DNA of 64,000 nucleotides from Rhizaria sp. SCN 62-66 (GCA_001724265.1 MEDY01000065.1:1-64000); one strand, 5' to 3'; shown: positions 7,743 to 57,326, counted from the stretch's first letter. The notes: a model not told the origin generated them from the sequence alone. A program made the numbers and translations.

Positions 7743-9628
<1,886 letters not shown>

Positions 9629-13729: not shown

Positions 13730-13760
<31 letters not shown>

Positions 13761-16700
13761 GCAGCAACAACAGCAACAACAGCAACGGTACAGTGCTGGA
13801 GATGTAACAGTAGGAACGCAAGTCCAACAGCAGCATGCAAGCGCAAGTGTAATGACAGTACATGTGCCTCTTTCTGCTGGAACACCTGTGGCACAAAGAG
13901 TCGATACATGTATCAAAGATGTCAGTCTTAACACAATCAACACTAGCGCAGCTGCAGCTGCTCTTGATATATCGCGTGCAGCAAATATGACAGCAAATAG
14001 TGGTGTAATTTTCCGTGATGGCAGCCAACCTGCTGTTAGCAGTATCGACATTAACAATGACGAGTTCTGCGCGAGTCACAGTTTAAACAACAGTGACTAG
14101 TCTGATTGCGAGCCACACACTCCGCCCGCGGCCGCTGTGCTGCGTCTGCTTGCAAGCAAGCAAGCCACTGCCACGCCAAGAACTACAGCGGGAGTCACAA
14201 CGGCAAACACTGCGACAAGCTCAACAAATTCCGCGTCAAGCTCTAGCAGTAGTTTGACAGCGACGGCGCCCACTGCTGTCCCGCTACTACGTCTACCAAG
14301 CAACAACAGCCAAGATCGTTCTGCGCCACGCCTGCCTGTGACGCCGCGTCCGCCAGTGCTTACACCCGCAGCCGCAGCTGCTGTTCTTGCTGCTAACGCT
14401 GCTACAGATGCCGCAGTAGCTGCAGCAACGGCTGCGCGCGCCGTTGAGGCAAACATTTCTGCTGTGCGCCAAGGCGCACGTGTTTGGCGACTGTGGGCGC
14501 AAGGCAGGATGGTTGAAAGCGTGGAAACAGTACTGTGTGGAGTTTTTAGGCAGAGGGCCTTTGTGTACAGCCAACCCCCGCTGCAGCCGCCTGTGCCACA
14601 ACCAGTTTCACAACAACAACGACAGCAACAACAGCTGCAGGCCGATGTTGGGCCCCCTTCTCGTGTATGTGCAGCAGCGCAAGCAGTACCGCATTCAAAT
14701 AAGAAAGTTGGTCGCGATATGATGGCACAAGACAAGCGTGCGCAGCAGCAAGAGCAGCGTCTTGCTGCTCTAGTGCAACAGCAGCAACAACATTATGCTA
14801 AGCCCATGCCTAAGCAGGAACAGCACGTTCAGGTTCATGGCATAAACGACAATGCATTTAAGAGTGCCGTCGGTGGTGGCATCTTACATCGCAAACCTGC
14901 ATTTGCCCACAGCCTACCTGGCGGAGCTAGCGGCAATATTAACGGCAGTGGTGCTGACCGAGCTGGCGAGAGTGTCGCCGACCGTCGTCGACGCTGGCGT
15001 GCGCACTTGGCAGAGGTACAACTCGAACGTGTTGCTGCAGTCGAAGAGGCTGTTGCAAAAGAGGCTGAGGCGCGTGCAAACGCAAACCTCCAGCGGCTTG
15101 AACCGGAGCAGAAGCAGCAACAGCAGTGCAAGAGTGTAAGTGTTGGTGATGGCGAGCTCTGGGGCGAGCGTGCGCTGGCTGGCGATCCAGATGGCTACCG
15201 CGTACAACGCGTAGCTCGCGCGCCATATGTCGGTCCCGTTCAGCCTGTTTCTGCCGCGTCAGAACAAGCTTGTGTAGACGCGATCGAAGGCGTGGTGGCC
15301 GCAGCAGTGCCAACTCTTGGCCTGAGCAGCGGCGGCAACAGCAGCAGTGCTCGCCCACCGCGACACCCGCAACACATGCTTGCGTCGTACTCAGCCGCCT
15401 CCGTCGCAGCTTCGGCAGCATATGATGCAGTCAACTGCGCAAGCGGCTTGATGTGTCCTGAATGTGGCGCTCGTGGCGGATCTGGAGCCGCAGCAGGTTA
15501 CGATTGTAGTAGTGGCAATGACTATCTTGACGGCGTTGCTGGGTGCCACTGCGGCGCGGGTGAGCGTGCAACAGTGCGCGTCGGCATGCCGTGTGAGTGT
15601 GGCGTTTGGCCGTGCTATTCAGAGCAATGGGCTGCAGTCGAGCAGGCAGAGGCTGCAGTTGAAGCGGCGCTAAAAAGGGCAAAGAGTCGGAGTGCGCACA
15701 ATCAAAACAATGCTTGTGAGAATATCAATGGCAAGGATCGCAACATTGTTGTCATTCGCGCCCGCCCCAGCGATTTAAACAGTGGTCACGATCAAAACAA
15801 CAATCGTGATAACAACAGAGATTCCCCGCAAGCGGTGGGTAATGGCAGTGGTGTTGGCAGTCACAAGAGTAATAAGAAGGGTGGACTCTTGTCACGGATC
15901 TTTGGCTGTGTCAACACGCCTGACGACGACGACGATGAAGAAGACGAGTTGGTTATGCCAGCAGAAGACGGCAATTTTATTGTTGATAGTCGCATTGCTG
16001 CGCGGCAAGAGCGCGTGCGGCAACGACAGCAAGAGCGTAGGCATCAACAGGAGCGCGCCGAGTCCAAGAAAAACAAGAAGAGCAATCAAGGCAACGACAA
16101 AGCGGGGGCTGCGGATGGCGTTGTGGGATCCAGTACACTTGCTGCGCAACATTGTGTGCACGTTGTTGGGCCAGGTGTTGCTGAACAGTCCTCGTGTACA
16201 CCTCGATCAAGCAGCGCCGTGAAGCGTGAACGAATGTGTCGTGTGCTGCTGTGCACCGACGCCGTTATTATGCTGGAGGCATAGCCCGCGGCAGTGAATG
16301 TGGCAAATGCAACAGGAGCTGTGACAGCAGCACGTCAAGCACTGATTGAGTCGTTGGGTCTCAGCAATACAGCTCCTGCTGCGAGTGTAAGTGCGTGTGC
16401 CATCGATGCACAGTGCGCTCCAAGCGCGCAGGGGAGCAAACTTTCAGCCAGTAGCAACTTCATAGAAGTTGCTGCAAGTGCATTTAACACCAATACTGAA
16501 GCGTGTGCAGGTGAAATGTTGATGTGGTCAGCTTCGGCATTGAATGACAAGAATGGATGTAGCGGTGCAGTGCGTGGTATGTTTATATGTTCATGGCTTC
16601 ACGAAGAAAATGTGCGCAAGATCACAATTAACAAATGTATCTGTGTTTTTGTAATAATATCCCTAAAACAGCTTGTTGATTCAAAAATAACTCATGTGCT

Positions 16701-33300: not shown

Positions 33301-36300
33301 ACTCGGCGCGCAGCTCGTCGATCTCGCGGCGCACGTACTCCTTCTTCTTGTCCGCCAGCGCGACGCGCTCGTCGACCTCCTGCTGCTGCTTGGCCTGCTC
33401 CAGCGAATAGTTGCCCAGCACTTCGGGGACGTCGCGCTCGCCCGCGCCGACGCCGCCGTCGCCGCCCGCGGCGTCGTCGTCGCCCACGGGCGCGGGCAGC
33501 GGCACGGCGACCGCGGCGTGGTACCGCTGCATCAGACTCACATCGCCCTGCGCGGCGGCCTCGCGAGCAGCCGCGAGCTCGCGCTGCCGCGCGGCGCGGG
33601 CCTCGAGCGCGGCGAGGTGCTTGCCGCGCTCGACCTCCTGCGCGACCGCAGGCGCCGATGCCGCGGCGAGCAGCGCGACGGCGTGCTCGCGGTCCGCCAT
33701 GCGCAGTGCGAGCGCGACGTCGTGGAGCACGGCGAAGAAGTTGCCGTCGGCGCCCGCGGAGAGGATGAAGCGCTCGTCGAAGGTCGAGGCCAGCGCGCGG
33801 ACGGCGCCGCCGTGGCCTGAGTGCAGGTGCGAGTGGAAGAAGAACTGAATGTCGGCCACAGGGCGGATCTGCACCGAGCCGTGCGCGGTGCCCGCGAGCA
33901 GCAGGGAGCCGCGAGCGGAGTAGTTGAGCGCGGTCACGGGGCCGACGCCGGGGCCCAGCGGCAGCGAGCGGGCGGGCTCGGCCGCGCCGGCGCCGGAGCC
34001 AGATGCAGCGGCGGCGGTCGCAGCGGCCGCGGCAGCCACGGTGGATGCGGCGCCGACGCCGGCACCGGCGGTCCACTGGTACTCATGCAGCGCCTGGTAC
34101 TTAGCCCAGGGCGCGACGAGCACGGAGCCGGGGACGGGCCCGCGGACGACGTGGCCCGCCTGGGCACCAGTGAACACCTCGTCGTCTCCGCCGCTGCCCG
34201 CGTTGTCCGCGGAGGCCTTGGCGACCACGGCGCCGGCGCTGGCGCCGCTGCTGTCGGCGTTGTTGCTGTCCTCGACGTGCATGGAGGCATCGTCGAAGGC
34301 GCAGTAGAATGGCCACTGGCCTGGCGCGGGCACGGCGGGCACCGCGCTGCCGTGCGCGGGCGCGGGCGGGTGGCGCACGTACATCAGGCACGACACGGCG
34401 TCGGCGCGCGTGTCGGGCAGCAACTCCTCCTGGACCGCGGCAGACGAGGCCGCAGCGGCGGCGGCGGCAGCGGCGGCGGCCGAGGCGTCGCCCCCGTCGG
34501 CGCTGGCTGCAGCGGCCTCAGCGGCAGCCGCGGCGGCCGCAGCCTCGGCCTCCTCGTCGGGCGGCAGGCGGCAGAGCGCGGGGACCTGCGGGCGCATGGT
34601 GCGCGTGGCGAGCGAAATGAGGTACGTCTCGCGCGCGGCCTCGGGCGGGTACGCGTGAGGCAGCGGGCGCGCGACCTGGAACACCAGCGGGCCGCGCGCG
34701 AAGAGGACGTGCTGCGAGTCGGGCGCCCACTGCAGCGACACGATCGGGGGCTGCTGCGCCTGCGCCGCGGCGCTCGTGGCGGCGGAGGCGGCGGCAGCCG
34801 CGGCGTCGCCCGAGCCAGAGCCGGAGCCGGAGCCGGAGGAGCCGGACGAGCCAGATGCGGCCGAGCCGGAGCTGGTGGTCGTGGGGACCGTGGTGCCGGC
34901 GCCCGGCGCGGTCTGGATGAAGCCGATGGGCGCCAGCGCGGAACCGCCGGCGAGGACCTCGAAGAAGAACACGGTGCCATCGGCGCCCGCGGTGGCGAGC
35001 TGCGAGCCGTCGGGTGCGAAAGCAAAGCCCACGACGGGGCCCGAGTGCGGGCGCGCGGCGGCGCGGAGCACGAAGCCCGACGACGTGCGCGCCAGGATGC
35101 GGACGACGCCGTCCGCGAAGCCCACGGCAACAAGGTTGCCGCCCGCGGTGGCTGCGTCGGCCGCGGAAAGCGCGGCGGGCGGCGCGTCGGGCGAGAGCGT
35201 GTGCGCAACCGAGGGCGGGGCCCAGGCCTGCGCGGTGGCGGCAACGGGAAACTTACGCGCGAAGAGCTGGCGGCCGCCGTGGACGTCCCAGCAGCGCACG
35301 GTGCCGTCACTGCCGGCCGTGACGGCCGTGTGCGCAAAGGGGGACGCGGCCAGGCCCGTGATGGGGCCCGCGTGGACGGTAAGCAGCGGCTCGGGGCGGG
35401 AGCCGGCGAGCAGCGGGAGGCGGAAGAGTCCGCCGCGCTTGTTGAGGATGACCCAGTGGTCGTCGCCGCGGAGCATGGCGCCCACGGCGACGTCAGGGCC
35501 CAGGAAGATCTCCTCCGTGGGCTCCACGGCCAGGATCAAATCCTCGGACGCCGCCTCGGCGAACTCGAACGTGTCGAGCGGCCAGGTGCGGAGATACCCG
35601 TCATCGCCGGCAGTGAGCACTTCGCGGCCCCGGAGCTCGACGAACTCGATCGCGCCCGCGTGGCACGGCCGGCCGTCGGCGCGCTGCAGCTGCAGCTGCA
35701 CGAGCCCGCCGTCCCAGACCAGGAGCGAGCCGCGCTCGGTGCCGGAGACGACCTTGCCGTCGGGCAGCTCGGTGAAGGCCGCGATATCCGAGAGCTCGAC
35801 GGCGCCGAACTTTCCGATCGCGCCCTGGAGCTTGAGGCCCGTGAAGGTGCGCGACATCTGCCAAAAGCGGATGTGGCCCTGGCCCGAGGTCTGCAACCGC
35901 GCCTCGTTGCGGGGCGAGAACTGGACGCGGAAGACGTCCTGTGAGAACGCCTTTGTGCGAAGCGTGACGCGCTCGTTGGCCCAGTCCCAGAGCACGAGCG
36001 AGTAGTCGGGCGCGGCGCCCACGGACGCAAGCTTGGAGCCCGACGGGGAGAAGGTGACCGATGTAAAGGCGAGCTCGGTGCCGCCGCGGAGGATGCGCAC
36101 GACCTGCAACGCGGGCCAGGAGTAGATGTAGATGTTGGGCCGCGAGCCCGTCTCGGCGACGGCGAAGTACTGCTTCGACGGGTGCACCGCGACGGCGCCC
36201 ACGCCGGCGCCGGGGGACTGGTCGTGGCCGAAGACGATCTCCTGCTTGCCGGTGAAGAGGTCGAGCGTCTGCACCGTGTGGCCCACGGCGAACAGGAGCA

Positions 36301-37096
36301 CGCCGACATCGATGTAGTGCAGGTTGGCGCGGCGGTGGCACTCGAGGCCGAAGGAGCGGTGCAGCTGCAGGTGCTCGGGCGGCAGCTCAAACACGCGCGG
36401 GTGGCGCGAAAGCTCGGACGCGTCGTCCGGGTAGACAAACGACGCCGGGAACGAGGACGAGGTGGCCGTCATGGCCGCATCCGAGTCCAGGGTGCTGCTA
36501 GAGCTGGAGCTGGAGCTGGAGGTAGCGGAGAAAGAGGACGATGAGGGTGAGGCGGCCGGCATGGGCGCGGGCTTACTGTGAGAAGGAGAGGGTGAAGGGG
36601 AAGCAGAGCTGGCAGCAGGCGCAGGCGCAGCGGCAGCGGCCGTCGCAGCAGCGGCGGCAGCAATCGCGGCGGCAGCAGCAGCCTCAGCCTCGGGGTTAGA
36701 CTCAGCCTCAAATTCAGCGTCCGTGTCAGCGTCCGCATCACCGTCGGCAGCAGCCGTAGCCTGGGCATCGGCAGCAGCGTCTGCGTCGACGTCGGGGTCA
36801 AAGGACGCACCGCCGCCGCCGCCGCCATTCATGAGAGCACGATCGTCGTTGTTGTCGTTGCCGTTATCGTCGTTGCCGTAGTACGCGTCGCCCTCAACGC
36901 CGGAAGCAGGGGGAAGGTCATAGCCGTCCGCGTCAGGATCGGCATCGGCGTCGGGGTTGTTGGCGTCATAGTACTGACCGCCGTCGTCGCCGCCGTCGTC
37001 GCCTTCGAAGACGTTGTTGTTGTGGAGGTAGTTGTCGCCGTCGTGCTCGCCCAGGCCCACCTCATCGAGGGGACTGCGGGGAGGAGACGAAGACAT
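30359..37096 (-). CDS. CFAP44: Cilia- and flagella-associated protein 44 (WDR52), apparently single exon
   Basis: SFGLECHRRANLH, KLASVGAAPDYSLVLWDW, LRTKAFSQDVFRV, GHIRFWQMSRTFTGLKLQG, then C-terminal coiled coils ending LKRKGG. Start taken at MSSSPP. Stop TGA. Confidence 0.93.
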   Translation of the reverse strand: MSSSPPRSPLDEVGLGEHDGDNYLHNNNVFEGDDGGDDGGQYYDANNPDADADPDADGYDLPPASGVEGDAYYGNDDNGNDNNDDRALMNGGGGGGASFDPDVDADAAADAQATAAADGDADADTDAEFEAESNPEAEAAAAAAIAAAAAATAAAAAPAPAASSASPSPSPSHSKPAPMPAASPSSSSFSATSSSSSSSSSTLDSDAAMTATSSSFPASFVYPDDASELSRHPRVFELPPEHLQLHRSFGLECHRRANLHYIDVGVLLFAVGHTVQTLDLFTGKQEIVFGHDQSPGAGVGAVAVHPSKQYFAVAETGSRPNIYIYSWPALQVVRILRGGTELAFTSVTFSPSGSKLASVGAAPDYSLVLWDWANERVTLRTKAFSQDVFRVQFSPRNEARLQTSGQGHIRFWQMSRTFTGLKLQGAIGKFGAVELSDIAAFTELPDGKVVSGTERGSLLVWDGGLVQLQLQRADGRPCHAGAIEFVELRGREVLTAGDDGYLRTWPLDTFEFAEAASEDLILAVEPTEEIFLGPDVAVGAMLRGDDHWVILNKRGGLFRLPLLAGSRPEPLLTVHAGPITGLAASPFAHTAVTAGSDGTVRCWDVHGGRQLFARKFPVAATAQAWAPPSVAHTLSPDAPPAALSAADAATAGGNLVAVGFADGVVRILARTSSGFVLRAAARPHSGPVVGFAFAPDGSQLATAGADGTVFFFEVLAGGSALAPIGFIQTAPGAGTTVPTTTSSGSAASGSSGSSGSGSGSGSGDAAAAAASAATSAAAQAQQPPIVSLQWAPDSQHVLFARGPLVFQVARPLPHAYPPEAARETYLISLATRTMRPQVPALCRLPPDEEAEAAAAAAAAEAAAASADGGDASAAAAAAAAAAASSAAVQEELLPDTRADAVSCLMYVRHPPAPAHGSAVPAVPAPGQWPFYCAFDDASMHVEDSNNADSSGASAGAVVAKASADNAGSGGDDEVFTGAQAGHVVRGPVPGSVLVAPWAKYQALHEYQWTAGAGVGAASTVAAAAAATAAAASGSGAGAAEPARSLPLGPGVGPVTALNYSARGSLLLAGTAHGSVQIRPVADIQFFFHSHLHSGHGGAVRALASTFDERFILSAGADGNFFAVLHDVALALRMADREHAVALLAAASAPAVAQEVERGKHLAALEARAARQRELAAAREAAAQGDVSLMQRYHAAVAVPLPAPVGDDDAAGGDGGVGAGERDVPEVLGNYSLEQAKQQQEVDERVALADKKKEYVRREIDELRAEFAYLLKQNALLEPSQRLARSSFELDPRLRQQFEHEAAVKVEEVQRELAWESEKHAVALAKLRARFLAPIQVECVRLRAFRSGMTVSTYRTPALPAFLTAAIKQVRALLAEPDANGAANGEAALSAAAAGGDDAEAAAAAATAAGGAADPLRLLQTVRAIADGASASSAALAGAGIASASATTGGAGGPASKTGAGGSGAGWDAAQRRAEREQRRQQLQLLRAARPDRLAHNAADMAAIVFAEQHLGDYALKADPALKVPEARRATVTNKRRQMVLLQEAVHMLKMEMNERVLALRRIKAALTTQLRADGTRVRELNAALGIAEPVFVPTTDPAEWPEHRDRSTDADLEKFAQWQAEQEALRVQRAREDNAKMTPQDLYGGMSDAPAAPTVTNASAASAAAAMVAVGATAGAGAQPSLASAAAERALLLQERRDLHAERLALVPRSAMEASQEAQRLRLLADERRELTARMDLAVAAFDDAVLRLRVEKSKLDTDVKSTELRLITLYEELILLRDCAEQEGVLTARLTKATALKAQVIADLAMCERALNGKLADVEACAARDRQLSAEFELVAKGADAAAASAAGTVVADGKMSELYAQLLRAYMRRVRRKRGQDDDGPASSSSRGRDAYSDDDEDMESGDDSDLSDDEDGGCPPGCDAAAFEKVLELRARRLEQDTIREGLRRQIGELEKTYERHQTRERAVDRDLDVVRADIDAFQGEKQQALNQVQVTLPLRLSQICNLVPEESDPAAAAAASGYNGAESGAGATGRLVLPSTLSSSVVFTVSGLRRLRHRISELDEEQAALSVQIKELKRARRTLMKDIEQKKAQITAEKQHCEDVQRLKFGQVIDLSVLATVGEDEAAVGLRSKLRSMEEAASRKLHEWDNRVQAAKDDLTSVTAKNTRLLEQVAKLTRAQYALETQLNKTTKNVHVTDASPADEQAEAERRELLHLVQLQEKEIDALKAEVHVLKRKGGRVYIPQ

Positions 37097-37906
37097 CTCC
37101 GGAGAGGCTGCGCAAGAAAGGGACAACGTTGGCAAAAGCGCAAAATCAGATCGCAGAGAGTGTGAGAGGTGTGCAAAAGGGAGTTGTTAAGGCTTTCCAC
37201 TGGCTTGTCGGTGGGGTTGACCATCCAGATGCCAGTGCAGAACACAGGCAGGGCGTGCTTTGAATAGAAAACGAAAATTTGATCATAAGAGTAGATATGT
37301 CGAAACGTATTATAGCTGTGAACAAAGCGCACTGGATTTTTAAATGATGCAAAATCCTGTCGGAAAGATCGGCCGTTTTGAAAACGGTCGGGGTGGAGCC
37401 CACGGTCAGTAACGACCGCGAGAGGTCAACGCCGCTGGTTCTTCGCACATCTATACCGCACTAACGCGCCGCAGGTGTTGCACACGCTTTGTAATTTAGA
37501 TGTTTCGAGTGATTTTTTTTACTGTATTTTTACTCTCTGCGTCTAAGGCGTCTCTTTTGTGACGGTTATGTCTCAAACCAGGTGTCCCTCCGCCCTCCCT
37601 TTTAACCGTTCGCTCACCGCGTCCTTACCCTTTTTGCCACGCCGCTCCCTGCAGTCTCCCGTCCGGCCACCGGGTCATCAGCCTTGCCCTCTTGGCTGTC
37701 TTCCCTTTCCGCCGCCCCGCGCCTCCGTACCTAGGCCCGGAGTTCCGCCCCGCCCCGTTTCGCGTCCAGAGCTCGCACCGCAGCGGTCCCGTCCCTGCCT
37801 TGCTTCTCTCGCTCAGCCGCTCACAGAGACACCTCGTCTAGCACACTCGTCGCTTCACGCCGTTGCCGCAGCCCCCGTTGCTGCTGCCCGTTTCGCGCTC
37901 GTCCCG

Positions 37907-38801
37907 ATGCTGGCCCCCGTGCTGCTGGCAGCGCCAAGCCTGCTGCTGTACCGCGTCCCCAACGACATCTTCATCGCCTCCGCCGTCTGCCTGGGCTTCT
38001 ACATCGCCATCGTCGCGCTCCGCCTCGTGTACATGTCGGCGGAGAACCCACGGATGTGGCACCATGAGGAAACCGCGCGCGCCGCCTGGTCGATCCCGGT
38101 GCTCCGCGTGACGGCCATCCTGGCGCTCATCTGCGCGCTCTTCCTCATCGGCCGCGTCGACATCTCGCTCACGCGCTGGATGTTCAACCCCATGTCGCTC
38201 AACAAGGGCTCGTGGAACATTATCCGCGTTATGGTCTCGCTTGTGCTGCCTATCTGCGCCGCGCTCATCAACACGAACCCGGTGTTCCGCATCTTCTCGG
38301 CCTTCGCCTTCCCGGCGTTGGGCATGATGGACCTGCTTAGCCAGGTCGACATCGCCGGACAGATCTACTGCATCGACCAGGTACGGCGCTCGACTACGAC
38401 GCAGCGCGCGTTTCATCACGACTTGGTATAGCTCATCCTTTGTGTTTCGTTTTGTATCATTGATTGCCTCCTCGATATTTCACTTTATTCGCTCACATTC
38501 TTCTCTTGTTTCTTTTTGCTAATTTTTACTTTGCGTGCTCGCTAAACAGGGCACGTGTGCGGATAGCAACGGCCTGTCGACGTTGTACCTGTGGATGTAC
38601 CGCGACCTGGTCGGCATCATGCTTAACGTCTGCGGCACCACGCTCTCCTGGTACCTCTGGGGCTGGCTCGGCTTCTGCACCAACGAGATCTACATCCCGC
38701 GCTACGAGCACCGCGTGCTCACCGCGGAGCTCTCGGGCATGAAGCTCAAGAAGCGCAAGGTGCGCCGCCGCCTTGGTGACGGTGAATTTATTGACTGGTG
38801 A
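37907..38801 (+). CDS. Unknown multi-pass membrane protein; exons about 37907-38380 and 38550-38801
   Basis: GC3-rich codons, about 5-6 hydrophobic segments, in-frame intron GTACGG...AACAG. Start uncertain because the frame is open upstream to 37559. Stop TGA. Confidence 0.7.
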
Positions 38802-42406: not shown

Positions 42407-45400
42407 TCACTCGGCGACGTCGTCGTCGGTCTCCTCCCTGATCTTGTGGAGCCCCGAGCGCACGACGAGCTCGTGCAGGCGCCGCTGCGAGGCCGAGCTG
42501 CGGCCCGCCTTAAGCGCCGCCAGCGGGCTCGCGCCAGGCGCCAGCGCCAGAGGGGCGGAGATGATGGGTGCCACGCTGGAGCCGGAGCCTGAGTGGGCGT
42601 GTCCTGGCGGCGCAAGGTGGTGCCCGTAGCCGTGGCCGTGGCTGTGGCCGTGGCCGGACGGCGACGCGCCGGCGCTGCCGCCGGGGCGCGAGGGCAGACT
42701 GCCGCCGCGGGGCCGCGCGGGGGCGCTGCAGTCGCCGAGACTGCGCCTGCTCGTCACGTCGTCGTCGTCGTCGTCGTCGCCGTAGCCGTTGTCGTCGCCG
42801 TCATCGTAATCGTTGTTGTCGCCCGAGGAAGAGCACTCGCCGCCGTCGTCGCCGTCGTTATAGGCGCCGAGGCTGTGAGAGTGCGAGCGCTGGTTGTGGT
42901 AGCTGTCCACTTCGTCGTGGTACTCGTAGTCGCCGTAGGGGTCGTACGCGTCGCCGCCGCCGCCGACGCCGCCGCCGCCGCCCGCACCCAGGATCCCGCT
43001 GCCGCCGCAGTCGATGTCGTAGTATGAGTCCAGCGCGGCGCGGGAGCGCGACGAGTGCAGACTCGGCGGCCGCGGCAGGCGGGCGAAGGCCTCGGCGGCC
43101 GGGTCCGTCGGCTGCGAGGACGACTGCTGCAACGACTGCAGCTGCTGCTGGGACTGAGACTGAGACAGGGACTGTTGAGGCTGGTGTTGGAGTTGCGTGT
43201 ACTGAGGGGCCGCGTCGGTGAAGCTTGCCGGCGCCGCCGTGGTCACAGGGCCTGTCGCAGCGCCAATTGCAAAGACTGAGACTGTGGAAGGGCTGGATAG
43301 CGGCAAGGGCACAGTCGCGGGCTCCGTCGATGCGGAGGTCACGGTGACGGTAAACGCTGCCACTGACGCTGGCGCAGGCGCGAGAGACGCGGGAATGTTA
43401 ATGTCACTGCCAAAACTGGCACTGCCAGCGTTGACGTCAGAGTGTGTCACGCCACGACTGGTTGAGTTGTAGTGAATTGCACCGGGAGACAGCGTGGCCA
43501 AGCCTGCGACCAACGCGGTGACCGCTTTCGTGGTTGGGGACAAGACGGCAGCGAGAGACACAGCAGAGGATGTGGGCGCAGCAGTGGTGATACTGGTACT
43601 GCTGGGCACCTAAGGCTGTGGTGGTGGCTGCGACTGGGACTGGGCCTGTGAGCCGCTGTTGCTGATGATTGTGGTACCAAAAGACGACGGAGCCGCCTAC
43701 AACTGTTGCGGCTTAGCAGCATCGCTAGCACTCGCAGGTGTACTGACTGCAGGCTTCGTACCATCGGACTTCGCAACAGCAGCAAGAGCAGCAGCAGCAG
43801 CAGCAGCCGTAGCAGCCGTAGCAGCCGCCGTAGCAGCGGCGTCCGCGCTACTATTAGTGCTGCCGTCAGTGATGTCGTGGTCCTTGTTGTTGTTATCGTT
43901 GTTGCTGTCCGCGTGGTCGCGCGCGAGGTCCGGGCAGCGCATCGCGCGCCTCATGGCCGCCGCGGCCTCGTCCGCAGGCAGGTAGCGCACCACCTCAAGC
44001 AGCCAGCGGCCGACGGCCTCGGAGTCGACGCCCGCGGCCGCCGCGGCCGAGGACGCGGCGCGCGCCGCAAGCACGAGGCTGCTGGGGCTAGCGCCGAGCC
44101 CGGGGCCCGCGCCGGAGGCCGAGTCCTTGCCCTCGCGCCCGCGGCGCCGGCTGCGGCCGCTCTTGCCGCTCTTGCGCCTGCGCCGAGACCCGTCGCCGTT
44201 GTCGCTGCTATCGCTATCATACACGTCATATTCACTGCTGCTGACCTTGCTGTTGCTGCCGCCGTCAACGACACCTGCGCTCTCGGCAGAGTTGCTGTTG
44301 GCAGTGGCTGCGCCAACGCTCGCGTCAGGGTTGTTGTCGTTCTTGTTGGAGTCCGAGACCTGCTCGTACACAGCCATCTTGGGGTTGTCGACCGCGGGCG
44401 GCGCCGAAGGGAACTCAAGCCGCCGGCCACCGGAGCCGAAGAGAAAGCGCAGCAGCGCGAAGTACGACGGCCGCAGCAGCAGCACGGGCCACGTGAGGTA
44501 GGCCGTCAGCATCACACCCGAGGAGATGGCGAAGAGCAGCTCGGGGAAGAGTCTCGGCGTGCGGGGCAGCCACGGCACTGCCGACAGCGGCGTGCGCACG
44601 AACCCGCGGCCGGCCTTGACCGCGGCGGAGGCCGCAGCAGTCGCGGCGGCCACGGCTGGGGAGGACGCGGACGCAGCGCGCGCGGCGGCAAAGGTGGCCG
44701 CGGCGGCGCGCGCCCCGGCGGGCGTGGCGCCCCAGCGCGCAAAGCACATGGCCTTGAGGCAGTGCGAGGCGGAGAAAAGCGCGAGCTCAATGCGGCGCTC
44801 CTTCTTCTCGAACAGCACGGCCGCCAGCGCGGAGAGCCCCACAGACAGCGGCATGGTAAGGTGATGGAAGCTCAGCGCGTGCAGCCGCGATGATAGCCAC
44901 AGGCGCGGCGCCGCGCCCAGGGATGACGCGACGGCAGCGGCGGCCGCAGCGGCGGCGTGCGCGTTGGGCGGCTGCGCGAGCGCGCGCGCGGGGGCCGGCG
45001 CGACGCCGCGCGCGAGCGCGGTGATGACCCCGCGCACAGCGCAGGCGGCGGCGTAAGCGCCCACGGTCATGGTGCCGAAGAAGAGCGAAGAGCGTGCGAT
45101 GTTGAGCAGCAGCGACTTGAGCGCGGCCGTGATCGCGGCGCGGCGGTCCTTGGCGCGCGCCAGCCCGCGCGCGCGGAACACGAGCAGCGGGATAAGGTAC
45201 ACGGGCAGGTACGTCTTAAGCGCGGTCTTGAGCACCGAGGGGATCTGCTCCAGGTGCCCGCGCACGCAGCTGTGCGGGTTGTTGGCGTGCAGAACCTGGC
45301 ACGCAAGCGAGTGGCGGTCGTGCAGGCTGTACAGCTGCGGCTGGTTCTTGGTGGCGCGGAAGGCGTTGGCCACGCGCACCAGGTCGTCAGGCAGCAGCGA

Positions 45401-47281
45401 TGGGACCAGCGACGCGCACGGCACCGGCGGCGGGTTGTTGGCCTAAGAAAACGAGTAAAAAACAAAAAGAATGGAAGATGTGAGGGTAAAACTCGACTTG
45501 GAGCAATAACACAATAAGATAACAGAACAACACAAAATTTCGCGTACCTGACTGTGGACAGCGCACGCGCTCTCGAACGTGGCGGGCAGCATGTATGGCG
45601 CAGGGAGCGTCGCCGCCGCGCCAGCAGAGGTCGCCGTGGCAGCAGCGACGGCCGCCGTCGCCGCCGCAGTGGCGGCCGAGACCACCTCAGTGCCTCCGCT
45701 CGTGGACGTGGACGTGCTGACGACGGTGCCTGCGAGCGTGAGCGGCGAGGTCACGAACGTGGTGCCGAAGGTACGCGCCAGGTCGCGCTCCAGCATCAGC
45801 GCGTCGCGATCGCGGAACGCGGCCTCCGCGGCCGCGCCGGCGCCGCTCGCGGCCGCAGTCGCCGTCACGGCGGCCGCGCCGGCCGCACCACCCGCAGCGC
45901 CCGCGTCGGCGAGGGTGGGGTTGAGCAGAGGGATGCCCGGCGCGGTCTGCCAGCCGTTGACGACTGGCACGCGGCGCGCAAGCAGCAGCGGCGCCGTGGC
46001 CGCGGCCGGAGGCCCGCCCGCCGCGACGGGCGGCACAAACGCGCTCGTCTTGCTCAGCGTGAACGAGACCAGCGGCGGCAGCGCGCGGCCGGCGCCCGCG
46101 GCGACCGCGGCGGCGTTAGCGGCGGCGGACCCGGCCGCGGGCGCGCGCGGGCCGGGGACGGTGCCGGAGTGGATGTAGGCCAGCACGGGCAGCGAGCCGG
46201 AGCGGGAGCCGGTGTTGTTGTCGAGGAAGGCCGCGTAGCTGGGGTCGAGCCGCTCGCGCCGAAAGACCCACGTCCACGTGATGTGCGCGGTGCAGAGCGC
46301 GAAAAGCGCCGAGTCGGCGTGCGGCACCTCGGGCACGAGCCCATAGAGGCGCGCACAACGCACGAGCACCTCGGCGGCGCGGACCACGAGGAACACAGCG
46401 ACGTCGAGCCGGGACGAGCGCGGGAGACAGAGGATCGCCAGGAAGCCGGCGACGGATCCCGCCATGAGCGAGTGCACCGGGTGGTGCCGCACGAAGCCGC
46501 CCTTGTTGTGGCCGTGGCGCGAGCGATGCTTGCTGTTGCGGACGCGGCGGCGAAGCGCGGCGCGGCGGCGGCGGCGGCGCGCGGTGGCCTCGTCCTCACC
46601 GTCAACAGCGGCAGCGTCGCAGTCGCCGTCGGCGTCGGCCTTGGCGTCCGCGTCGGTGCTGTTGTACTCATTGTCGGGCTCGGTGCGGTCGAGCAGACTC
46701 ATGACGCCCTCGAACACGGCCAGCAGCGCGGCCAGGAAGCAGCCGTACCGGCCCGGCATCACGATAAACTTAGAAAAGTTGCTCTTGTCGAGCAGGATGC
46801 GCAGGATCACGCCAGGATTGCCGCCCGAGCGCAGCAGCGAAGGTACGAGCGCGAGCGCCAGCTTGAGGCCCGCCGCGATGGCGAAGCCCTTGCCGGCGCG
46901 CCGCAGGAAGCGGGCCAGCGCGCGGCGTAGCGCGGACATAGCGTTGTGAAGCTGCGCGCGGGATGGAGGAGGAAACGCGGAAGAGTGTGGCGTAGCAGCG
47001 GACGAGCTCGAGCTCGAACTATGGCTCGCGCCAGAAGCAGGGGAAGTGTCAGAGCCCGGAGAGTTGTTGACTGTGGGACTCGAGCTTGGACTGGATGCTT
47101 CGGCGGCAGCGCTGGCGGCGCGGGCATCGTCATCAGTGTCCGAGGCCGAGGTTGCAGAAGCTGAGGAAGAGGTTGAGGTCGAGGCCGAGACGCCAGAGCG
47201 CGCGCGCGCTGAGATGATGTAGGGGAGCTGGCTGAGACGGCGGCCGTAGCTCTGCCAGCGCGTGAGGCCGACTAAGTCCAT
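42407..47281 (-). CDS. TMEM135: TMEM135-like (Tim17/PXMP4 superfamily) membrane protein with long disordered C-terminal tail containing two in-frame TAG codons (43697-43699, 43610-43612); intron 45547-45443
   Basis: DSALFALCTAHITWTWVFRRERLDPSYAAFL, CQVLH...C, KTYLPVYLIPLLVFR, RSSLF and FEKKERRIELALF. The 400-aa downstream ORF has coding-type codon use, no ATG, and is in the same frame. Stop TGA. Confidence 0.8.
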
Positions 47282-48801: not shown

Positions 48802-49175
48802 ACGTCTGCAGTGTGCGGTTGCTCTCAGGCGCGCGGCAGCCAGAGAGCAAAGAATGAGGTGTTTGGAGCAAACTGAAGATCCAATGAAATATTCGCAAGG
48901 GCCTGTGAGGATATCACCAGCTATATAGCACAATTTTAAAGGCATTTATACATAGTTTTTACTACTATTGATACCGTACTTCACTGAATCACGAAAATAT
49001 ATTAGCCTAGTAGAGAAATCTTTGTTTTATTTTCCACCACAAACGCGTTTTAGTGCGGCAAATGAGCTTGCTGTGCGCTGTGGCAGGCGGTTGGGGGGTG
49101 GGCCGAGGTCAGGTTTCACGGCTCGGCAAGGTGCTTTTTTGTATTGCTTAAACGCACGTACACGTACCGTATACA

Positions 49176-52100
49176 ATGGCTTCTACTAAGGCCGGCGTCA
49201 AGCTGCGCGAAGTTAGTCTTGGCAAGCGTAAGATTTCTCCCGATGAGTTTATCTCCATCGTCGTGGGCGACAACATTGACATCCAGCTCAACTCGGCGTC
49301 GGTCGAGGAGCTCGACAAGGCGAGTAAGAAGCGCTTTCCTCCCATCAAGGTCGAGGACCACCTCAGCGCGTTCCCCGACGCCCTCACGGCCGACAACACC
49401 ATGTGCCGCATCGGCACCCGCAGCGTGCTTGCTCTGCGCGTGATTTCCTTCCTCCAGGGCCGCGCCGCCGTGCGTCCGCAGGTCGTCGAGGCGCTCGTCG
49501 CGCTCCTCAACAAGGACATCTGCCCGCTGCTGCCGGCGCCGCGCCTCGCCTCGGACGTCCAGGTTATGTCCGCGCTTGTCGCCGCCTTTACCGCCCCCGC
49601 CACGGCGCCCTGCTTCGTCGGCACCAAGACCGTGCCGTTCACCACCGTCGCCGAGGCCTGCGCCGCCGCCGGCGTCACGCTGCCCGAGCTCAACCCCAAC
49701 GAGGTCAAGCGCATGACCATGGGCGTGCTGCCCGCGCAGGCGCTCGCCGCGCAGGCCGCGTACCGCGCCAAGGCCGCCGCCGTGCTGGCCGACGCCGTCG
49801 CCGGTCTCTCGCTCGAGGCCCTCGGCGCCTTCACCGAGCCCTTCCAGCAGGCCTACCACGACGTCGCACGCCCCTACGTCACCGCCATGGAGGTCGCCGC
49901 GCTCGTCCGCTACATGCTCGAGGGTTCCGGTAACGTTAACAAGTCCAAGGCCAAGACTCAGGTATGTTCTATTTCGCAAGATCTGTTCGATCTGCAAATC
50001 CTTGTGTCCTCTCGTGTTGCGATTTGTTTGAGCATTAATACTGCGCTTTATTTCGCATCCTCGCAACGAAACCATTGTATTCTCTATTTCCTAACAAAAA
50101 TGTTTTCTTTAATCTCTATGTCGCCTATTCTGCGCTTTATAACAACGCACAGGACCCCGCATGCTTCCGCGAGATCCCCCTCGTCTCGGCGGGCCTGCGC
50201 GACGCCGCCGCTTCGGCGATCTCGGCCGCGCGCGTCGAGCTTAACTCCGCCGAGGCCGCGGGCATGGTCCTCGACTGGCAGCACGACCCCGCCTTCACGG
50301 CGCAGCTGTTGGCGCAGACCGCGGCCTCGCTGGCCGCCGCGCTGCGCACGTCGATGTCGCAGTCGCTCGCGCGCTCGGCCGCGCTCGTCGCCGCCGTCAC
50401 CGCCGCGGGCACCGCGGACCTGGCCTCGGCCACCGCGGGCGCCGCAGACCACGCCGCAGTGCTGGCCGCCATCGCCGCGCGCTCCGCCGCCGTCTCGGCC
50501 TCGGCCGCGGCCGCCTACGCCGACGCGACCTCGACCGCGGCCGCCGCGGGCACCGTCGTGTCGGGCGCGGTGCGGCTCGCCGCCGCGCTCGAGGCCGCCG
50601 TGGCGCTCGAGGCCGCGGCCGCGCTGCACGTGCTCAACGCGCGCGAGGCCGCCGCCGTCGAGGCCGCGGGCAAGGCTGCCGCGGTCAAGCGCGAGGCCGT
50701 GCTCAAGCGCATCGCCGACTGGCAGGCGCTCGACGCAAAGGCTGTCGCCGAGGGCACCGCGCGCCCCGACCCCAAGAAGTGCCCCCCGGCTCCGGCCCCG
50801 CTGGACGCCGCGGCCGGCGCCGCCAAGGGCAAGGGCCTGGTGATGGGCGCCGGCGCCGGCAAGGTGCTTGAGGTGCTCTCGGAGGCCGTCAAGACCGCCG
50901 CCGCGGCCGCGGGCGCGAGCGACGCGGCCGCCACCGGCTTCGCGGCGGGCGCCGTGGGCGGCGACGTCTTCGCGACCGTCGTGTCGGCCGCACTGACGGG
51001 CGTGAAGCCGCAGCTGGCGGAGCGCGTGGCGGCCGCGGTGGCCGTGGTGAACCAGACGGCGCTGCCGAAGCTGCCCAAGGGCACGCGCGACGCCGACCCC
51101 GAGCTCATGGCGATCCGCGAGAAGACCTTCGGCATGATCACCGAGATCTTCCAGGTACGACGCAACAGAAACTCGATATATCTTCAATTGATAAAAAGAA
51201 GACTTACTAATCTTGTTCGTGTGAATAATCGAGTTCTTACTTTACAACTTGTATCTTTGTTTCTTTAAATTAGGCCCACGGTGGCGTCGGCATCGACACG
51301 CCCGTGTTCGAGCGCAAGGAAATCCTGACCGGCAAGTACGGCGAGGACTCTAAGCTCATCTACGACCTGGCTTCGCAGGGCGGTGAGATCCTCTCGCTGC
51401 GCTACGACCTCACCGTGCCCTTCGCGCGTTACTGCGCTGCCAACGGCGTGAGCAACATCAAGCGTTACCACATCGCCAAGGTTTACCGCCGCGACAAGCC
51501 CGTCATGGCCAAGGGCCGCTTCCGCGAGTTCTTCCAGTGCGACTACGACATCGCCGGCACGTATCCGCCCATGGTGGCCGACGCTGAGGCGCTCAAGGTC
51601 ATGTCCGACATTCTGTCTAAGGTCGGCATCGGCGCCTTCAAGATCAAGCTCTCGCACCGCAAGCTGCTCGACGCCGTCATGACCGGTACGTGCAAATCAC
51701 GATTATATTGACACTTTGTTCGCATATTTACCTTTAATTGTTCTAAAATTGTCGTCTTCAAGTCTTATGTTGTAAATGGGATATGATCCGAAACACATTT
51801 TGTTCACACACAAATGGTTGTGCTCTATTCTCTCTTGACAGTCTGCGGCGTCCCCGCCGACAACCTGCGCCCGATCTGCTCGGCCGTGGACAAGCTCGAC
51901 AAGGAGCCCTGGTCTGTGGTGCGCGACGAGATGGTGCTGGAGAAGGGCCTGGCCGAGGACGTGGCGGACCGCCTGGAGCGCTACGTCACGCTCCCCCCCA
52001 CCGCCGTGGCCGGCGACTCCTCCGCGCCCGGCGCGCTGACGCCTTACCAGCTGCTGGCGCAACTCGAGGCCGACGCCGCGCTGGCCGCGTCCCCGTCGGC

Positions 52101-52782
52101 CCAGGCTGCGTTCGCGGACCTGCGCCTGCTGTTCGACTACCTGGACGCCATGGAGGGGCTCGACCGCGTGTCGCTGGACCTCTCGCTCGCGCGCGGCCTC
52201 GACTACTACACGGGCCTCATCTACGAGGCTGTGTTCCTGGAGGAGGGCCAGGTCGGCTCCGTCGCCGCGGGCGGCCGCTACGACGGGCTGCTGGGCATGT
52301 TCTCGGGCAAGTCTGTCCCCGCGGTCGGCATGTCGATCGGCATCGAGCGCATCATGTCGATCCTCGAGAATAAGGCCAAGGCGGCCAACCGCGCCATCAA
52401 GACGACCAAGACCACTGTGCTGGTCGCCTCGGTCGGCAACGACCTGCTCAAGGAGCGCATGAAGCTGGCGGCCGAGCTGTGGCGCGCGGGCATCCCCACC
52501 GAGTTCCTCTACGCCGAGAACCCCAACATCCGCAAGCAGATGGAGTACGCGTTCGACGGGCAGATTCCCGTCGTGGCATGGCTCGGCGAGGACGAGCTTA
52601 AGGCCGGCGTCGTCACCGTCAAGACCCTCACAGCCGACAAGGAGGCGCAGACCGAGGCGCGCTCCGTGCCGCGCGGCGAGATCGTAGACACGCTCAAGGA
52701 GATTATCGCCGCGCTGCCCAAGGACCAGATCTTCACCGCTCCTGCTCCCGCCGCCGCGGGCGAGGCGCAGCCCAGCGCGTAA
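49176..52782 (+). CDS. HARS: Cytosolic histidyl-tRNA synthetase with N-terminal histidine-ammonia-lyase-like domain; exons 49176-49961, 50153-51154, 51274-51685, 51842-52782
   Basis: [63 protein letters not shown] and an anticodon-binding domain. Three GTAYG introns keep the frame. Stop TAA. Confidence 0.95.
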
Positions 52783-53010: not shown

Positions 53011-56000
53011 TTAGATGCGAGCGCGCGCCTGTGCAAAATGCGTGTACTTAAGCATCACACTTGCAGGGTCAACACTATTGTTGCTGCTACCAATTGCAGC
53101 TTGGGCCCTACTTTTATCTGCAGCGGCGATGGCGTGTTGCAATGCGCACAGCACAGCGCCGCGACACAGCGACGTGATGCGGGCGCAGCTAAAACCGCGG
53201 CACTGAACAGAGAGAGGAAAAGAGTCACATCGGGGGAAATGTCGTAAGTTAGTGAATGAAATGGAACTGAAGCTTGATGTGTTAAAAAATAGTTGTGATG
53301 CAAGATATCCAGGCGATAAAATCGTACCATAGTTGCGATGATGTGCTCCAAGTCGACGTCGGGTCCCAGCGTCACGGCCTTGAGCGCGTACAGCGCAATG
53401 TCCTTGGCGTCCTCCGCGCTGGGCAGCGGCACTGCGACGACTTCGTCGAGACGGCCGGGGCGCAGCAGCGCGGCGTCGACGCTGGAGCGCAGGCGGGACG
53501 TCGCGATGACGAACACCCCGCGGCGGGCCTCGATGCCGTCGAGCTCGTTGAGCAGCGTGGACAGAATGCGCGCCTCGACGCCTATGAAAAAGCGCAACAG
53601 AAAATATAAATCATTTTGTCGGTGAAAATATAAGAAAGACCAAAATTGAACAGTGAAACTCAACATATACAAACAAAGAAACGAGTTGTGACGTACCGGT
53701 CGTTGACGCTGATGCCACAGCGCGGTTGGGAGCAATGACGTCCACCTCGTCAATAATCACGACGCACGGCGCCGCATCGGCCGCGCGCCTAAACACCGCC
53801 CGCAGCACGCGCTCGCTCTCGCCCAGAAAGCGCTGCAGCACGTCGGCGCAGCCCAGCCGCAGCACGGCCAGCCCGGACGCCTCGGCGAGCGCGGCGGCGA
53901 GGCGCGTCTTGCCCACGCCCGAAGGCCCGTGCAGCAGCAGGCCCTGCGGCGGGCGCGCGCCGAGCCGCGCCGCCGTGTCCGCGCGCCGCCAGTGCGAGAC
54001 GAGCAGCGACAGCCGCACCTTGAGCTCTGGGTAGCCCGCGATGTCAGCGAGCCCCACAGTGGCCGTGGCGCTGCCGCTGACGGGCAGGGACGCGGCGGCA
54101 GCCGCGGCCGCGGCGGCGCCGTCGCGCGCGGCCGCCGCGGCACGGGTCTGCGTGGCAGCAGCGGCCACTGAGGACAGCGACAGGGGCGCGGGGGAACTCT
54201 CGCTCTCGTCAGATTCAGTCACTGCAGCACTCGTGTTGCCACCGGCGCTCGAGGCAGAAGTGTGCTGCGTCAGAGCGGCGGCGGCGGCGGCGCGCGCCCA
54301 AGCCTCCGTGGCCGCCACGACGTCGCCCGCGGCGAGGCCGGCGGTGGCGCGGGCCACAGCGGCCGCCGCAGTCAGGAGACCGCGCAGGGGCACGGGCAAC
54401 TGAGACGAACAGTGTGCGGCGTTGCAGAGAGATAGAGCAGCGGTGACGCGGGCAGCAGGGCTCGCGCTCGAGTGAGTGAGCGCTGAGAGCGTTGTGATGA
54501 TGTCGGTCTCAAGCGGCGGCAACGCAGGCGCGCGCACAACATCAGTGCTGCTGTTCGAGTGCGTCTCTAGATACCACTCCCTGAATGCCAGCGCCAAATC
54601 ATCAAACCCAATCACAGCATCGACACTCGCGCCAGGGTCGGCCGTGCGCGCCGCCAGCGCAGCAAGCGCGGCGACCGCGGTGTCCTCTTCCTCGCTGGGG
54701 GCAACCGTGAGCCGCAGCGCGGCGGGCGCGGCGGGGCGCAGCGACCGCAGCAGCGCAGTCATCGTCGCCATTGCGGGGGTCGCCGAACGCACAGCAGAGC
54801 TCGCGGTGCTGGCAGTCGCCGTCTCCGTCGCAGCCAGCGTTGTTGTCGTGAGTGCGGGGGCGAGCGTGTGCATGGCCAGCAGCGCGCGGTCCGTGGCGGA
54901 GGGCAGCGGGACGGCAAAAATTGGGATTGCGCCCGCGCCGACGACAGGCGCCACATCCGCAACACTCTGCCGCTGCTTCTGTTGTTCTAGTGAAGTACTG
55001 GAAGGCAGCGGCGCGTCGTCGCCGAGTGTGAGCAGCGCGCGCAGGGCTCGTGGCAGCGCCGTGTGGCGCGACACAAGCACTACCGACACCGGGGACGCGG
55101 CCACCACAGTCTCAGCAGCAGCAGAGCGGCCGTGAGCAGCGGTGGCGGGGAGCTGGTAGGCGAGGGACCGGACGAAGGCGGTGAGGAGGGCGCCCATGCT
55201 GCTGTCGGGCGCGGCGGCCACGCCCTGCTTCCCCTTCCCGGTGCCATGAGACCCGGAGCCGGAGCTCTTGCTGCCTGCGTCAGAGCTGTTGTTGCCGCTC
55301 TCGTCGTCACCATCTTCGTCGTCAAACGGGGAAGGGATGACGGCGTCGACGTCGTCCACGACGACGACTACGCCGACAGCGCCCTTGGACGCCGCTGCCA
55401 ACAGCAACGACAACGGCTGCGACGAAGACTGCGACTGTGCGAGTGCGAGCAAAGGCACGGCTGCAGCGGCCGCGGCGGAGACTGCGGCTGCGGCCGCGGC
55501 GACGGCGGCCGTCCACGCTGCGACGACGGCGTCCGCGGTGGCGTGCTGGCCGGCGGCCGCAGCGGCGGCGGTTGCAGCGGGCGCGGCCGCGGCGGAAGCT
55601 GCAGCAGCAGTTGATGCTGTAGCAGCGGCAGTTGCAGCAGCAACAGCAGCGTCAGCAACATCATCACTCGTGACTAAACTTCTGCTGCTGCTGCTGCTTT
55701 GCGCGTGCTTAATGTAGGCCGCGGCGGCGCCCAAGGCCGGCGCGGGCGTGTAAGTGACCGTGGGCACCCCGGTCAGCAGGTCGCGTGCGGACACGGTCAC
55801 GCGCGCCCACGGGCCGTGCACTGGCCCCACACTACTGTTTGTGCCCGCACTCGCACTCGAGTCTGAGGCGGCAGAGGCTGGAGCGGAGGCGAGGGACGAC
55901 GCGCGGGACTTGCCGCCGCGCGCGGGGCCCGTAAGCACGCACGCCGCGGGCGACACGCGCACGACCGGGCTGACGTTGTTGGCGTTGCTACTGTCAGCGT

Positions 56001-57108
56001 TGTTGCTGTCGCCGTCTCCGGGGGGACTCAGCGCGAAGGCGGCGGCGCGCGCGGGCGTGAAAAGGAGCGACTGGAGCAGGTGCGCGCGCAACGACGGCAC
56101 GGCAGCGGCCACGGGGGCGGGAAACGCAGGCGCAGAGGCGACGGCGACAGAAGAGGTGGAGACAGAGCTTGCTGACTGCAACCCATCATGCCTCCGTTGT
56201 TGCGCGGAAGGAACTGTTGGCAGCATGACAGCTGACGTGTTGCTGTCAACTGCATACACAGGCGCAGCCGCGGTGAAGAGTACGGGGCAATGGGCGTGGA
56301 ACCAGTACACACGCGTCAGGTAGCGCACAGGCACGCACGCCAACAAAGGCTGCTGCGCGACAGCAGCTGCGTCGGTGGAGCTGTGGGTGCTGGCACTGGC
56401 ATCGGCTTCAGCGGCGGCGGCGGCGGTCGCGAGCGGGAATCCAGCCAGCTGCCTCGCCAGCAGCGCGGCCAGACGTGGCCCGCAGCGGTGCTCGCCCTCG
56501 CCCGTACTCCCGCCCTCACAGACATCACTGTTGCTGCTGCCGCTGTTGCTGTTAGCGCGAGTGTCGTTGAGGGTCGCGGGCAGGTGCGTGCGGATGAGCT
56601 CCGGCAGCGGCGCGCTGCCCGCCACCGCGGATAGCACCAGCCGCCGCGCCGGCCCGGCCGCGTCCGCACCTGCCGCGCTCGCAGCAGCCGTCGCGACGAC
56701 GGCCGGGGTCGGGACGGCGAGCGGGAGGGAGAGCCGGAGCCCGTTGCGCGCGGCGGCCGGCAGCAGTGCGCAGAGCGAGGCGTGCGCGTCATCGGATAGC
56801 AAAACCTCGTCCACAGACAGTGCGGGGTCAGGGACAAGCCGCAGCAGCGGGAAGAGGCGCTCCGGCGCAGCCGCAGCGGGCGCAGAGGACTGGTGCGCGG
56901 AGCTGGCAGCAGCGGCGCAGGACGCGGCGGCCGCGGCGGCGAAGACTGCGAAGCTGAACGGAAGCAGCGAGGAGTGCGGGGAAAAGTGGGCAGGGGAGAG
57001 CCAACACGTGTGCGCAGGCTGTGGGGATGTCGGACAGTTGCGCGGAAGCGCAGTGATGGGCAGCTCAAGCTGAGGGCCGGAGGCCGCAGCGAGGGCTGCG
57101 GAGTCCAT
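53011..57108 (-). CDS. CDC48/AFG2-family AAA ATPase, closest by motif to SPATA5L1/AFG2B; exons 57108-53697, 53581-53328, 53202-53011
   Basis: Intact second AAA module (GLLLHGPSGVGKT, IIDEVD, ARILSTLLNELDG, DAALLRPGRLD, lid CRGFSCARITSLCR). Degenerate first module (GPARGGKS, VVVVDDVD). Stop TAA. Confidence 0.8.
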
Positions 57109-57326
57109 CCTAGGTCGGGAATAAAAAGTTGTGTCTTGATGTCGTGAGCAGCTTCTCAGAAAGTATTAATAACTGAGCATATATAAAATATATAAACAGC
57201 TAATTTTGTGTTTATCTTTTCCGCTTTAACGGACTCCCTGCGTATTTCCAGCCTTTGTCGAAGACAGGTCAACTCAATTAGCTCTCTCAACTGCTCTCTG
57301 CATTTGCAGTCGCCTCCCTCAGACTG

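Follow-up and report, generated by a model that had tools for sequence, protein, structure and literature searches.

Two in-frame TAG codons in a TMEM135-like gene of Rhizaria sp. SCN 62-66 and the possible translation of UAG

We analysed a stretch of 64,000 nucleotides (nt) from Rhizaria sp. SCN 62-66 (GCA_001724265.1 MEDY01000065.1:1-64000), in the following called the window, which encodes on its minus strand a protein resembling TMEM135, a peroxisomal/mitochondrial membrane protein family (PF15982). The reading frame of this TMEM135-like gene runs from an ATG at 47281 to a TGA at 42409-42407 and is interrupted by three TAG triplets. The TAG at 45445-45443 is the acceptor of intron 1, an intron that is itself in frame and contains this triplet as its sole in-frame stop. 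The other two TAGs fit no intron of the usual kind; they are separated by 28 codons, at a distance of 87 nt, and with both of them read the gene comprises 1589 codons. The frame around them reads AAKPQQL, the first TAG, AAPSSFGTTIISNSGSQAQSQSQPPPQP, the second TAG and VPSSTSITT. An earlier note on this DNA, made from the sequence alone, had described two TAGs in one minus-strand frame, followed by a tail that lacks an ATG, has a typical G+C content at third codon positions (GC3) and ends at a TGA. Both observations were confirmed at the positions given in Table 1, and the GC3 of the tail is 0.82 as compared to 0.85 in the upstream open reading frame (ORF) of 581 codons. The surroundings had been called a Gln-rich linker, which holds locally, while the linker as a whole is rich in Ser, Thr, Ala, Pro and Gln. 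Its GC3 (43900-43201) falls to 0.33-0.73 against 0.8-0.97 on both sides, and the frame score stays positive all along.

The 400-codon tail is real coding sequence in the frame of the gene. Codon-usage scores, for which other genes of the window provided the training set and 500 dinucleotide shuffles the control, revealed one frame that carries a coding signal without break from 44599 to 42439. Specifically, the signal reached z = 4.3 at 43900-43700 and z = 4.9 directly after the second TAG (43609-43283), and by segment it amounted to z = 3.0 (43609-43505), z = 4.3 (43504-43283) and z = 3.6 (43282-43000), values that none of the 500 shuffles reached in any of these cases. Verified introns and untranslated regions scored at about zero or below in all frames. 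Among the three possible translations of the inter-TAG stretch, that in the gene's own frame fits the flanking amino acid make-up best. Between 43900 and 43201 this frame contains 2 stops as compared to 3 and 10 in the other frames, which taken alone is weak evidence (P(<=2) = 0.04 in shuffles). Further evidence came from HMMER, with which the 1011-residue read-through of exon 2 and tail was searched exhaustively against 1.84 billion protein representatives. The sole non-self match to the tail was a 130-residue ORF on an 8.7-kb metagenome contig of another organism (P0033), which shares 26 of the 30 residues of a motif at the tail end (GRSSASQRRLxELVVRSGLxKIREET) and shows a loose likeness outside of it. 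The shared motif shows that the tail end has been under selection. With no start codon of its own and no AT-rich spacer towards exon 2, the tail can only be expressed as an extension of the frame upstream. We rejected an independent gene at this place, as there is no Met in 400 codons, no AT-rich spacer and no change of frame.

The assignment of the gene to TMEM135, also proposed in the earlier note, stands through its better-matching relatives, while the protein's own score remains below the Pfam cut-off. Exon 2 matched PF15982 (TMEM135_C_rich, the N-terminal Cys-rich region) with 18.9-20 bits (E 0.0025-0.0011), where the cut-off is 27. In alignment A2 all five sequences matched this domain at E <= 0.01 (best E 4.1e-08), and PF15982 was matched by each of the closest relatives (P0003-P0006). 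The HMMER search returned 44 proteins at E <= 0.001. Two of these (P0001 and P0002) are fragments from the same organism and are followed by a TMEM135-like series from E 2.6e-21 downward, with P0003-P0006 matching at E 2.6e-21 to 3.1e-15. P0003 to P0005 have either the MDL..TR(F/W) N-terminus or the layout of two halves plus tail in common with the query, and the N-terminus of the window protein, MDLVGLTRWQS, matches MDL(I/V)SITRFES of P0003 and P0005. The arrangement of a Cys-rich region followed by membrane helices is likewise that of the family. However, low-complexity inserts and a tail that has its own conserved end make the window protein, at 1159 or 1589 residues, far longer. A metagenome scan with the TMEM135 alignment found six distant loci, one of which (L001) is the contig encoding P0003, with a G+C content of 0.35, one ORF and a TAA stop. 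Scans of genome contigs and viral contigs for DNA of the relatives gave no match, nor did a metagenome scan with the tail alignment. A protein word search with the whole 1011-residue read-through also gave no match, its 8000 scored candidates probably being crowded by low-complexity words, and neither did a word search for shorter proteins with the junction region (residues 556-700), which scored cluster representatives only, so that a variant without the TAGs or with the stretch spliced out may have been hidden behind them. P0001, which is a fragment of exon 2, ends in QIGRAHV and a stop and there departs from the window sequence. This ending resembles a translated sequencing adapter, in which case it would be an artefact of that public assembly and not a variant.

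A second gene of the window contains in-frame TAGs as well. The ORF at 11974-16640 on the plus strand, the 3' end of which is provisional and may be followed by further exons up to about 18456, encodes a large low-complexity protein without a Pfam match and has a CAA-rich, low-GC3 codon usage unlike that of its neighbours. Scored with its own codon table, it showed a coding signal before the TAG at 14098 (z = 2.8), after it (z = 3.2) and after the TAG at 16282 (z = 3.1), values reached by 1, 0 and 0 of 300 shuffles, respectively. An intron of 426 nt from 13675 to 14100 was rejected in view of the coding signal within it (z = 2.8). On the sense strands of the genes in the window, four in-frame stops have coding signal before and after them and lack the features of an intron; all four are TAG, and no TAA or TGA of this kind was seen. 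Conversely, none of the 14 gene ends that could be recognized by a drop in G+C behind a coding ORF uses TAG; nine have TAA and five have TGA. This count leaves out ORFs ended by TAG at 38431 (inside the intron 38381-38550) and at 16284 (where coding continues) as well as antisense frames.

An assembly error appears to be an unlikely source of the two TAGs in the TMEM135-like gene. The window is part of a contig of about 192 kb, and the organism is represented by further contigs. In other public assemblies, the ORF that ends in PQQL exactly at the first TAG (P0045) was found on three contigs and the tail ORF that starts after the second TAG (P0046) also on three. Two sequencing runs yielded matching contigs, a polyA metatranscriptome (X1) and a second run (X2). 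A contig of X2 is colinear with the window over 43571-43771 without a single difference. The recurrence of TAG-ended ORFs and this colinearity together render a one-off assembly error unlikely. The public assemblies and X2 may share the source sample of the window and are in that case not independent, and they exclude a one-off slip of assembly and little more. X2 also covers intron 1 colinearly (45106-45618) and behaves like DNA, and its one joint nearby, from 43381 to 43627, lacks splice-like ends (GA..TG, side 22). In X1 an identical contig of 153 nt lies within the tail (42747-42899), which is no proof of transcription because DNA can occur in polyA libraries.

Taken together, we tentatively favour the reading that the two in-frame TAGs are kept in the mature mRNA and are translated, although we hold it with less than even confidence; retention, decoding and the decoding agent are all inferred. 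The gene product would then be one protein of 1589 residues, in which a long disordered linker connects the two membrane halves that resemble TMEM135 with a tail ending in a conserved motif. UAG would be read efficiently as an amino acid by a suppressor or cognate tRNA, through a weakened response of the release factor to UAG, or both, whereas UAA and UGA would stay terminators. The earlier note had concluded that both TAGs are decoded, with Gln favoured. The first part gains from the in-frame coding tail without a start of its own and its conserved end, from the single nearby consensus donor (43761), which cannot be joined in frame to either TAG, from a stretch unlike introns, from the second gene with TAGs and from the missing TAG terminators. 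The identity of the residue fared less well: Gln is a guess that draws on a local Q-x-Q pattern and on the one C-to-T change between CAG and TAG, with no conserved aligned position at hand and with the TAGs of the second gene lying outside any Gln context.

The alternative that survives best, although we consider it unlikely, is a short atypical spliceosomal intron that removes both TAGs in frame (43700-43602, 43747-43610 or 43769-43602) and might represent a young, 'intronised' piece of coding sequence. The comparison rests on nine introns verified by frame shifts inside conserved domains or by clear exon continuations, namely those of the M24 peptidase gene, the 26.6 kb gene, the HAL-HisRS gene (three), the AAA ATPase gene, the importin gene, the 38.4 kb gene and the TMEM135-like gene. 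All nine have the donor G/GTAYG, where the slash marks the splice site (eight G/GTACG and one G/GTATG). They measure 105-524 nt, are AT/T-rich amid GC-rich exons and end in TAG/G or CAG; the eight that were measured have a G+C content of 0.30-0.50, a T content of 0.32-0.50 and pyrimidine-rich 3' ends. The genome has few introns, and their 5' splice site is unusually strict. Several features of the TAG region suit an intron. The TAGs can both be bypassed with an open frame by 107 in-frame GT..AG pairs, and candidates of 99-138 nt come near the shortest verified intron of 105 nt. Both TAGs stand in a TAG/G context, the acceptor form of four of eight verified introns, and the candidates end in YAG (TTGTAG/G at 43697, CCTTAG/G at 43610 and CCCAG/C at 43602). 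Intron 1 of the same gene is in frame too, with TAG as its sole stop. Moreover, the 28 codons between the TAGs carry a coding signal that is weak and, over so very short a stretch, not significant (z = 1.42, reached by 40 of 500 shuffles), and the absence of TAG from the conserved genes is what one would expect of an ordinary stop. Against these points, none of the short candidates has a G/GTAYG donor (they start with GTAGGC, GTCAGT or GTCCGA), and their G+C content of 0.59-0.62 and T content of 0.17-0.19 lie outside the range of the verified introns. The shortest pair had already been named in the earlier note as in frame and non-consensus, which proved correct, as did the lack of a T-rich tract (T 0.17-0.21 against 0.32-0.50 in the eight verified introns). 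The make-up of the inter-TAG peptide equals that of the flanks, and the TAGs of the second gene would need similar introns, so that four such odd introns would be required over two genes.

The single nearby match to the donor consensus, the GTACGA at 43761, does not rescue an intron. Joined to the AG at 43610 it gives 152 nt and a shifted frame, as the earlier note had stated; what that note missed are the acceptors further downstream that are in frame with this donor (43525, 43504, 43369, 43363, 43357, 43282, 43276 and 43252). Introns from this donor would excise 43609-43505 or more, sequence with a clear coding signal (z = 3.0 to 4.9), and are therefore unlikely; the long introns to 43504 or 43282 were rejected on this ground. 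GTACG is not diagnostic alone, as it occurs at 94 sites on the two strands of the window, mostly within exons, and the 80 nt following 43761 resemble those exonic copies (G+C 0.59, T 0.21).

Less probable again, and to our judgement improbable, is that TAG acts as an ordinary stop, so that the protein ends at 43697 and the tail represents coding sequence that was disabled only very recently, or is part of a truncated allele carried in this population, with the second gene decaying too. Two nonsense changes of the CAG-to-TAG type would be sufficient, both TAGs being one transition from CAG in a stretch with 7 CAG and 1 CAA codons, and the G in the +4 position suits termination. Furthermore, the distant relative P0004 ends about 110 residues past the membrane domain, which indicates that a short tail is viable in the family. 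However, the tail retains 400 open codons, a strong codon-usage signal and a motif conserved in another organism, has acquired no frameshift, TAA or TGA, and the premature stops of the two genes, four in number, are TAG throughout. That a second stop should follow after 29 codons and then none in 400 is unlikely if the decay is neutral, with an estimated chance of about 7% by position alone. Finally, low-level programmed readthrough depending on context, with most ribosomes stopping at 43697 and a minor extended isoform, would agree with the conserved tail end and with the readthrough-extended isoforms known in other eukaryotes, but is highly improbable, since the losses of product at two serial stops would multiply, each TAG is followed by the base commonest after true stops, and no stable structure lies downstream of the TAGs. 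The remaining probability falls to readings other than translation, intron, truncation and readthrough.

A number of observations weigh against translation of the TAGs. None of the long conserved ORFs of the window (CFAP43-like, AAA, importin, HisRS, M14, M24, nucleoporin-like) contains a TAG, and no in-frame UAG was found at a conserved position of a conserved protein in the window. The stop-free stretches of these genes add up to about 8,580 codons, or about 10,900 if the nucleoporin-like ORF is included; single ORFs without TAG are those of the CFAP43-like protein (2275 codons), the nucleoporin-like protein (about 2280), the AAA ATPase (1184) and the importin (963). ARAGORN and Rfam detected no tRNA gene in the 64-kb window, hence no suppressor tRNA there, and the 100 nt from each of the four TAGs formed no stable RNA structure (z = 0.12, -1.34, 1.38 and -0.34). 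Both TAGs of the TMEM135-like gene are followed by G, as are 10 of the 13 listed true gene ends, a context expected to favour termination, and the same TAG/G also fits the consensus of a 3' splice site. To this are added the weak signal of the inter-TAG codons and the small size of the stop-codon tally, with 14 genes only. Among the HMMER relatives there was no orthologue in which the tail is fused to a TMEM135 domain, and a comparison of the tail end with P0005 gave no match to its C-terminus (the best E, 0.089, concerned another region). Run X1 had no listed contig over 43496-43869 and no splice-like joint there, which has no bearing on splicing and means that no RNA contig spans the TAGs.

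Nuclear codes in which UAG alone is reassigned provide the closest comparison. According to the excerpts of Panek et al. (2017, PMC5304391) on which we rely, UAG encodes Gln in Iotanema spirale and Leu in Rhizaria sp. exLh. As in the window, in-frame UAGs occur there while UAA and UGA still end genes, and for I. spirale the same excerpts report UAG as not seen as a terminator, which is matched by 0 of 14 gene ends here. In contrast, UAGs in these organisms are described as frequent and located at conserved positions of conserved proteins (Iotanema, 204 UAGs in 126 genes; exLh, 71 in 8 proteins), and this difference likewise counts against translation in the window, where about 20 genes contain only four UAGs, each of them in a disordered stretch of low complexity and outside any position that can be aligned. 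In the phyllopharyngean ciliates, as far as an excerpt of PMC11687900 describes their UAG reassignments, UAG is also handled apart from the other stops; the window does not appear ciliate-like, however, with a coding GC3 of 0.8-0.9 and TAA as its main terminator. Because the conserved genes are free of TAG, tRNA, structure and fused orthologue are missing and the +4 base is G, UAG, if it is read, would be a rare and not an established sense codon, tolerated so far only in fast-evolving, disordered regions of low GC3.

Table 1. Positions of the features discussed (window coordinates; a slash marks a splice site)
Feature	Position	Strand	Remarks
Exon 1, TMEM135-like gene	45548..47281	-	ATG 47281-47279; 578 codons
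Intron 1, TMEM135-like gene	45443..45547	-	105 nt, GTACGC...TTCTTAG; T 0.50, G+C 0.34
Exon 2 to first TAG	43700..45442	-	581 codons; second TMEM135-like half and low-complexity stretch
First in-frame TAG	43697..43699	-	Codon 1160; next base G
Inter-TAG stretch AAPSSFGTTIISNSGSQAQSQSQPPPQP	43613..43696	-	28 codons
Second in-frame TAG	43610..43612	-	Codon 1189; next base G
Tail without Met	42410..43609	-	400 codons
Conserved tail-end motif GRSSASQRRLHELVVRSGLHKIREETDDDV	42416..42505	-	26/30 residues identical in P0033
TGA stop	42407..42409	-	Followed by G and a drop in G+C
Linker with both TAGs, Ser/Thr/Ala/Pro/Gln-rich, low GC3	43201..43900	-	700 nt
GTACGA, donor-consensus match inside codons GGT ACG	43756..43761	-	Out of frame with both TAG/G sites
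Shortest in-frame GT..AG pair over both TAGs	43602..43700	-	GTAGGC...CCCAG, 99 nt; G+C 0.62, T 0.17
Other short in-frame pairs	43747-43610; 43769-43602	-	138 nt, GTCAGT..TTAG; 168 nt
In-frame TAG, second gene	14098..14100	+	Flanks of 724 and 727 open codons
Second in-frame TAG, second gene	16282..16284	+	Frame open for about 143 further codons
Verified introns	8586-9109, 26668-26867, 38381-38550, 49962-50152, 51155-51273, 51686-51841	+	
Verified introns	19878-19688, 45547-45443, 53696-53582	-	

Among the other genes of the window, the histidyl-tRNA synthetase (HisRS) gene (49152-52782, plus strand) has an N-terminal aromatic amino-acid lyase part (PF00221), a fusion that is also present in many homologues including those of green algae. 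In a HisRS search confined to proteins of 547-2000 residues, metagenome sequences reached 62-68% identity and named species about 42-53%; the latter were mostly green algae, besides arthropods, a rodent, a record labelled as a bird and a ciliate at 42-48%. At 1-7190 on the minus strand an open frame of more than 2,200 codons runs off the window edge; its FG/FGFG repeats after a structured N-terminal part are FG-nucleoporin-like. Owing to a G+C content of 72-76%, this part of the window is largely open in all six frames. Three further minus-strand genes encode a CFAP43-like WD40 protein (30359-37186), an AAA ATPase (53011-57165) and a protein of the importin-beta family (18833-22497). The CFAP43-like protein, a single exon of 2275 codons, implies a flagellated organism.

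More tentatively still than the translation of the two TAGs, the window can be read as belonging to an uncultured, GC-rich flagellated eukaryote, with DNA present in runs labelled activated sludge, that is early in a stop-to-sense change of UAG, in which this codon is gone as a terminator and reappears at a few disordered, low-GC3 sites. Nuclear codes with a change of UAG alone are known from very few lineages of eukaryotes, all of which already use the codon commonly. If true, the genome would offer a natural snapshot of early codon reassignment, in which UAG no longer ends genes and occupies a few tolerant positions. This early phase is where the 'codon capture' and the 'ambiguous intermediate' models predict differently. 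Gene callers split such genes, and public protein sets indeed carry both halves separately, as P0045 and P0046. If the TAGs are spliced instead, the gene would contain an intron lacking the splice signals to which this intron-poor genome otherwise keeps strictly.

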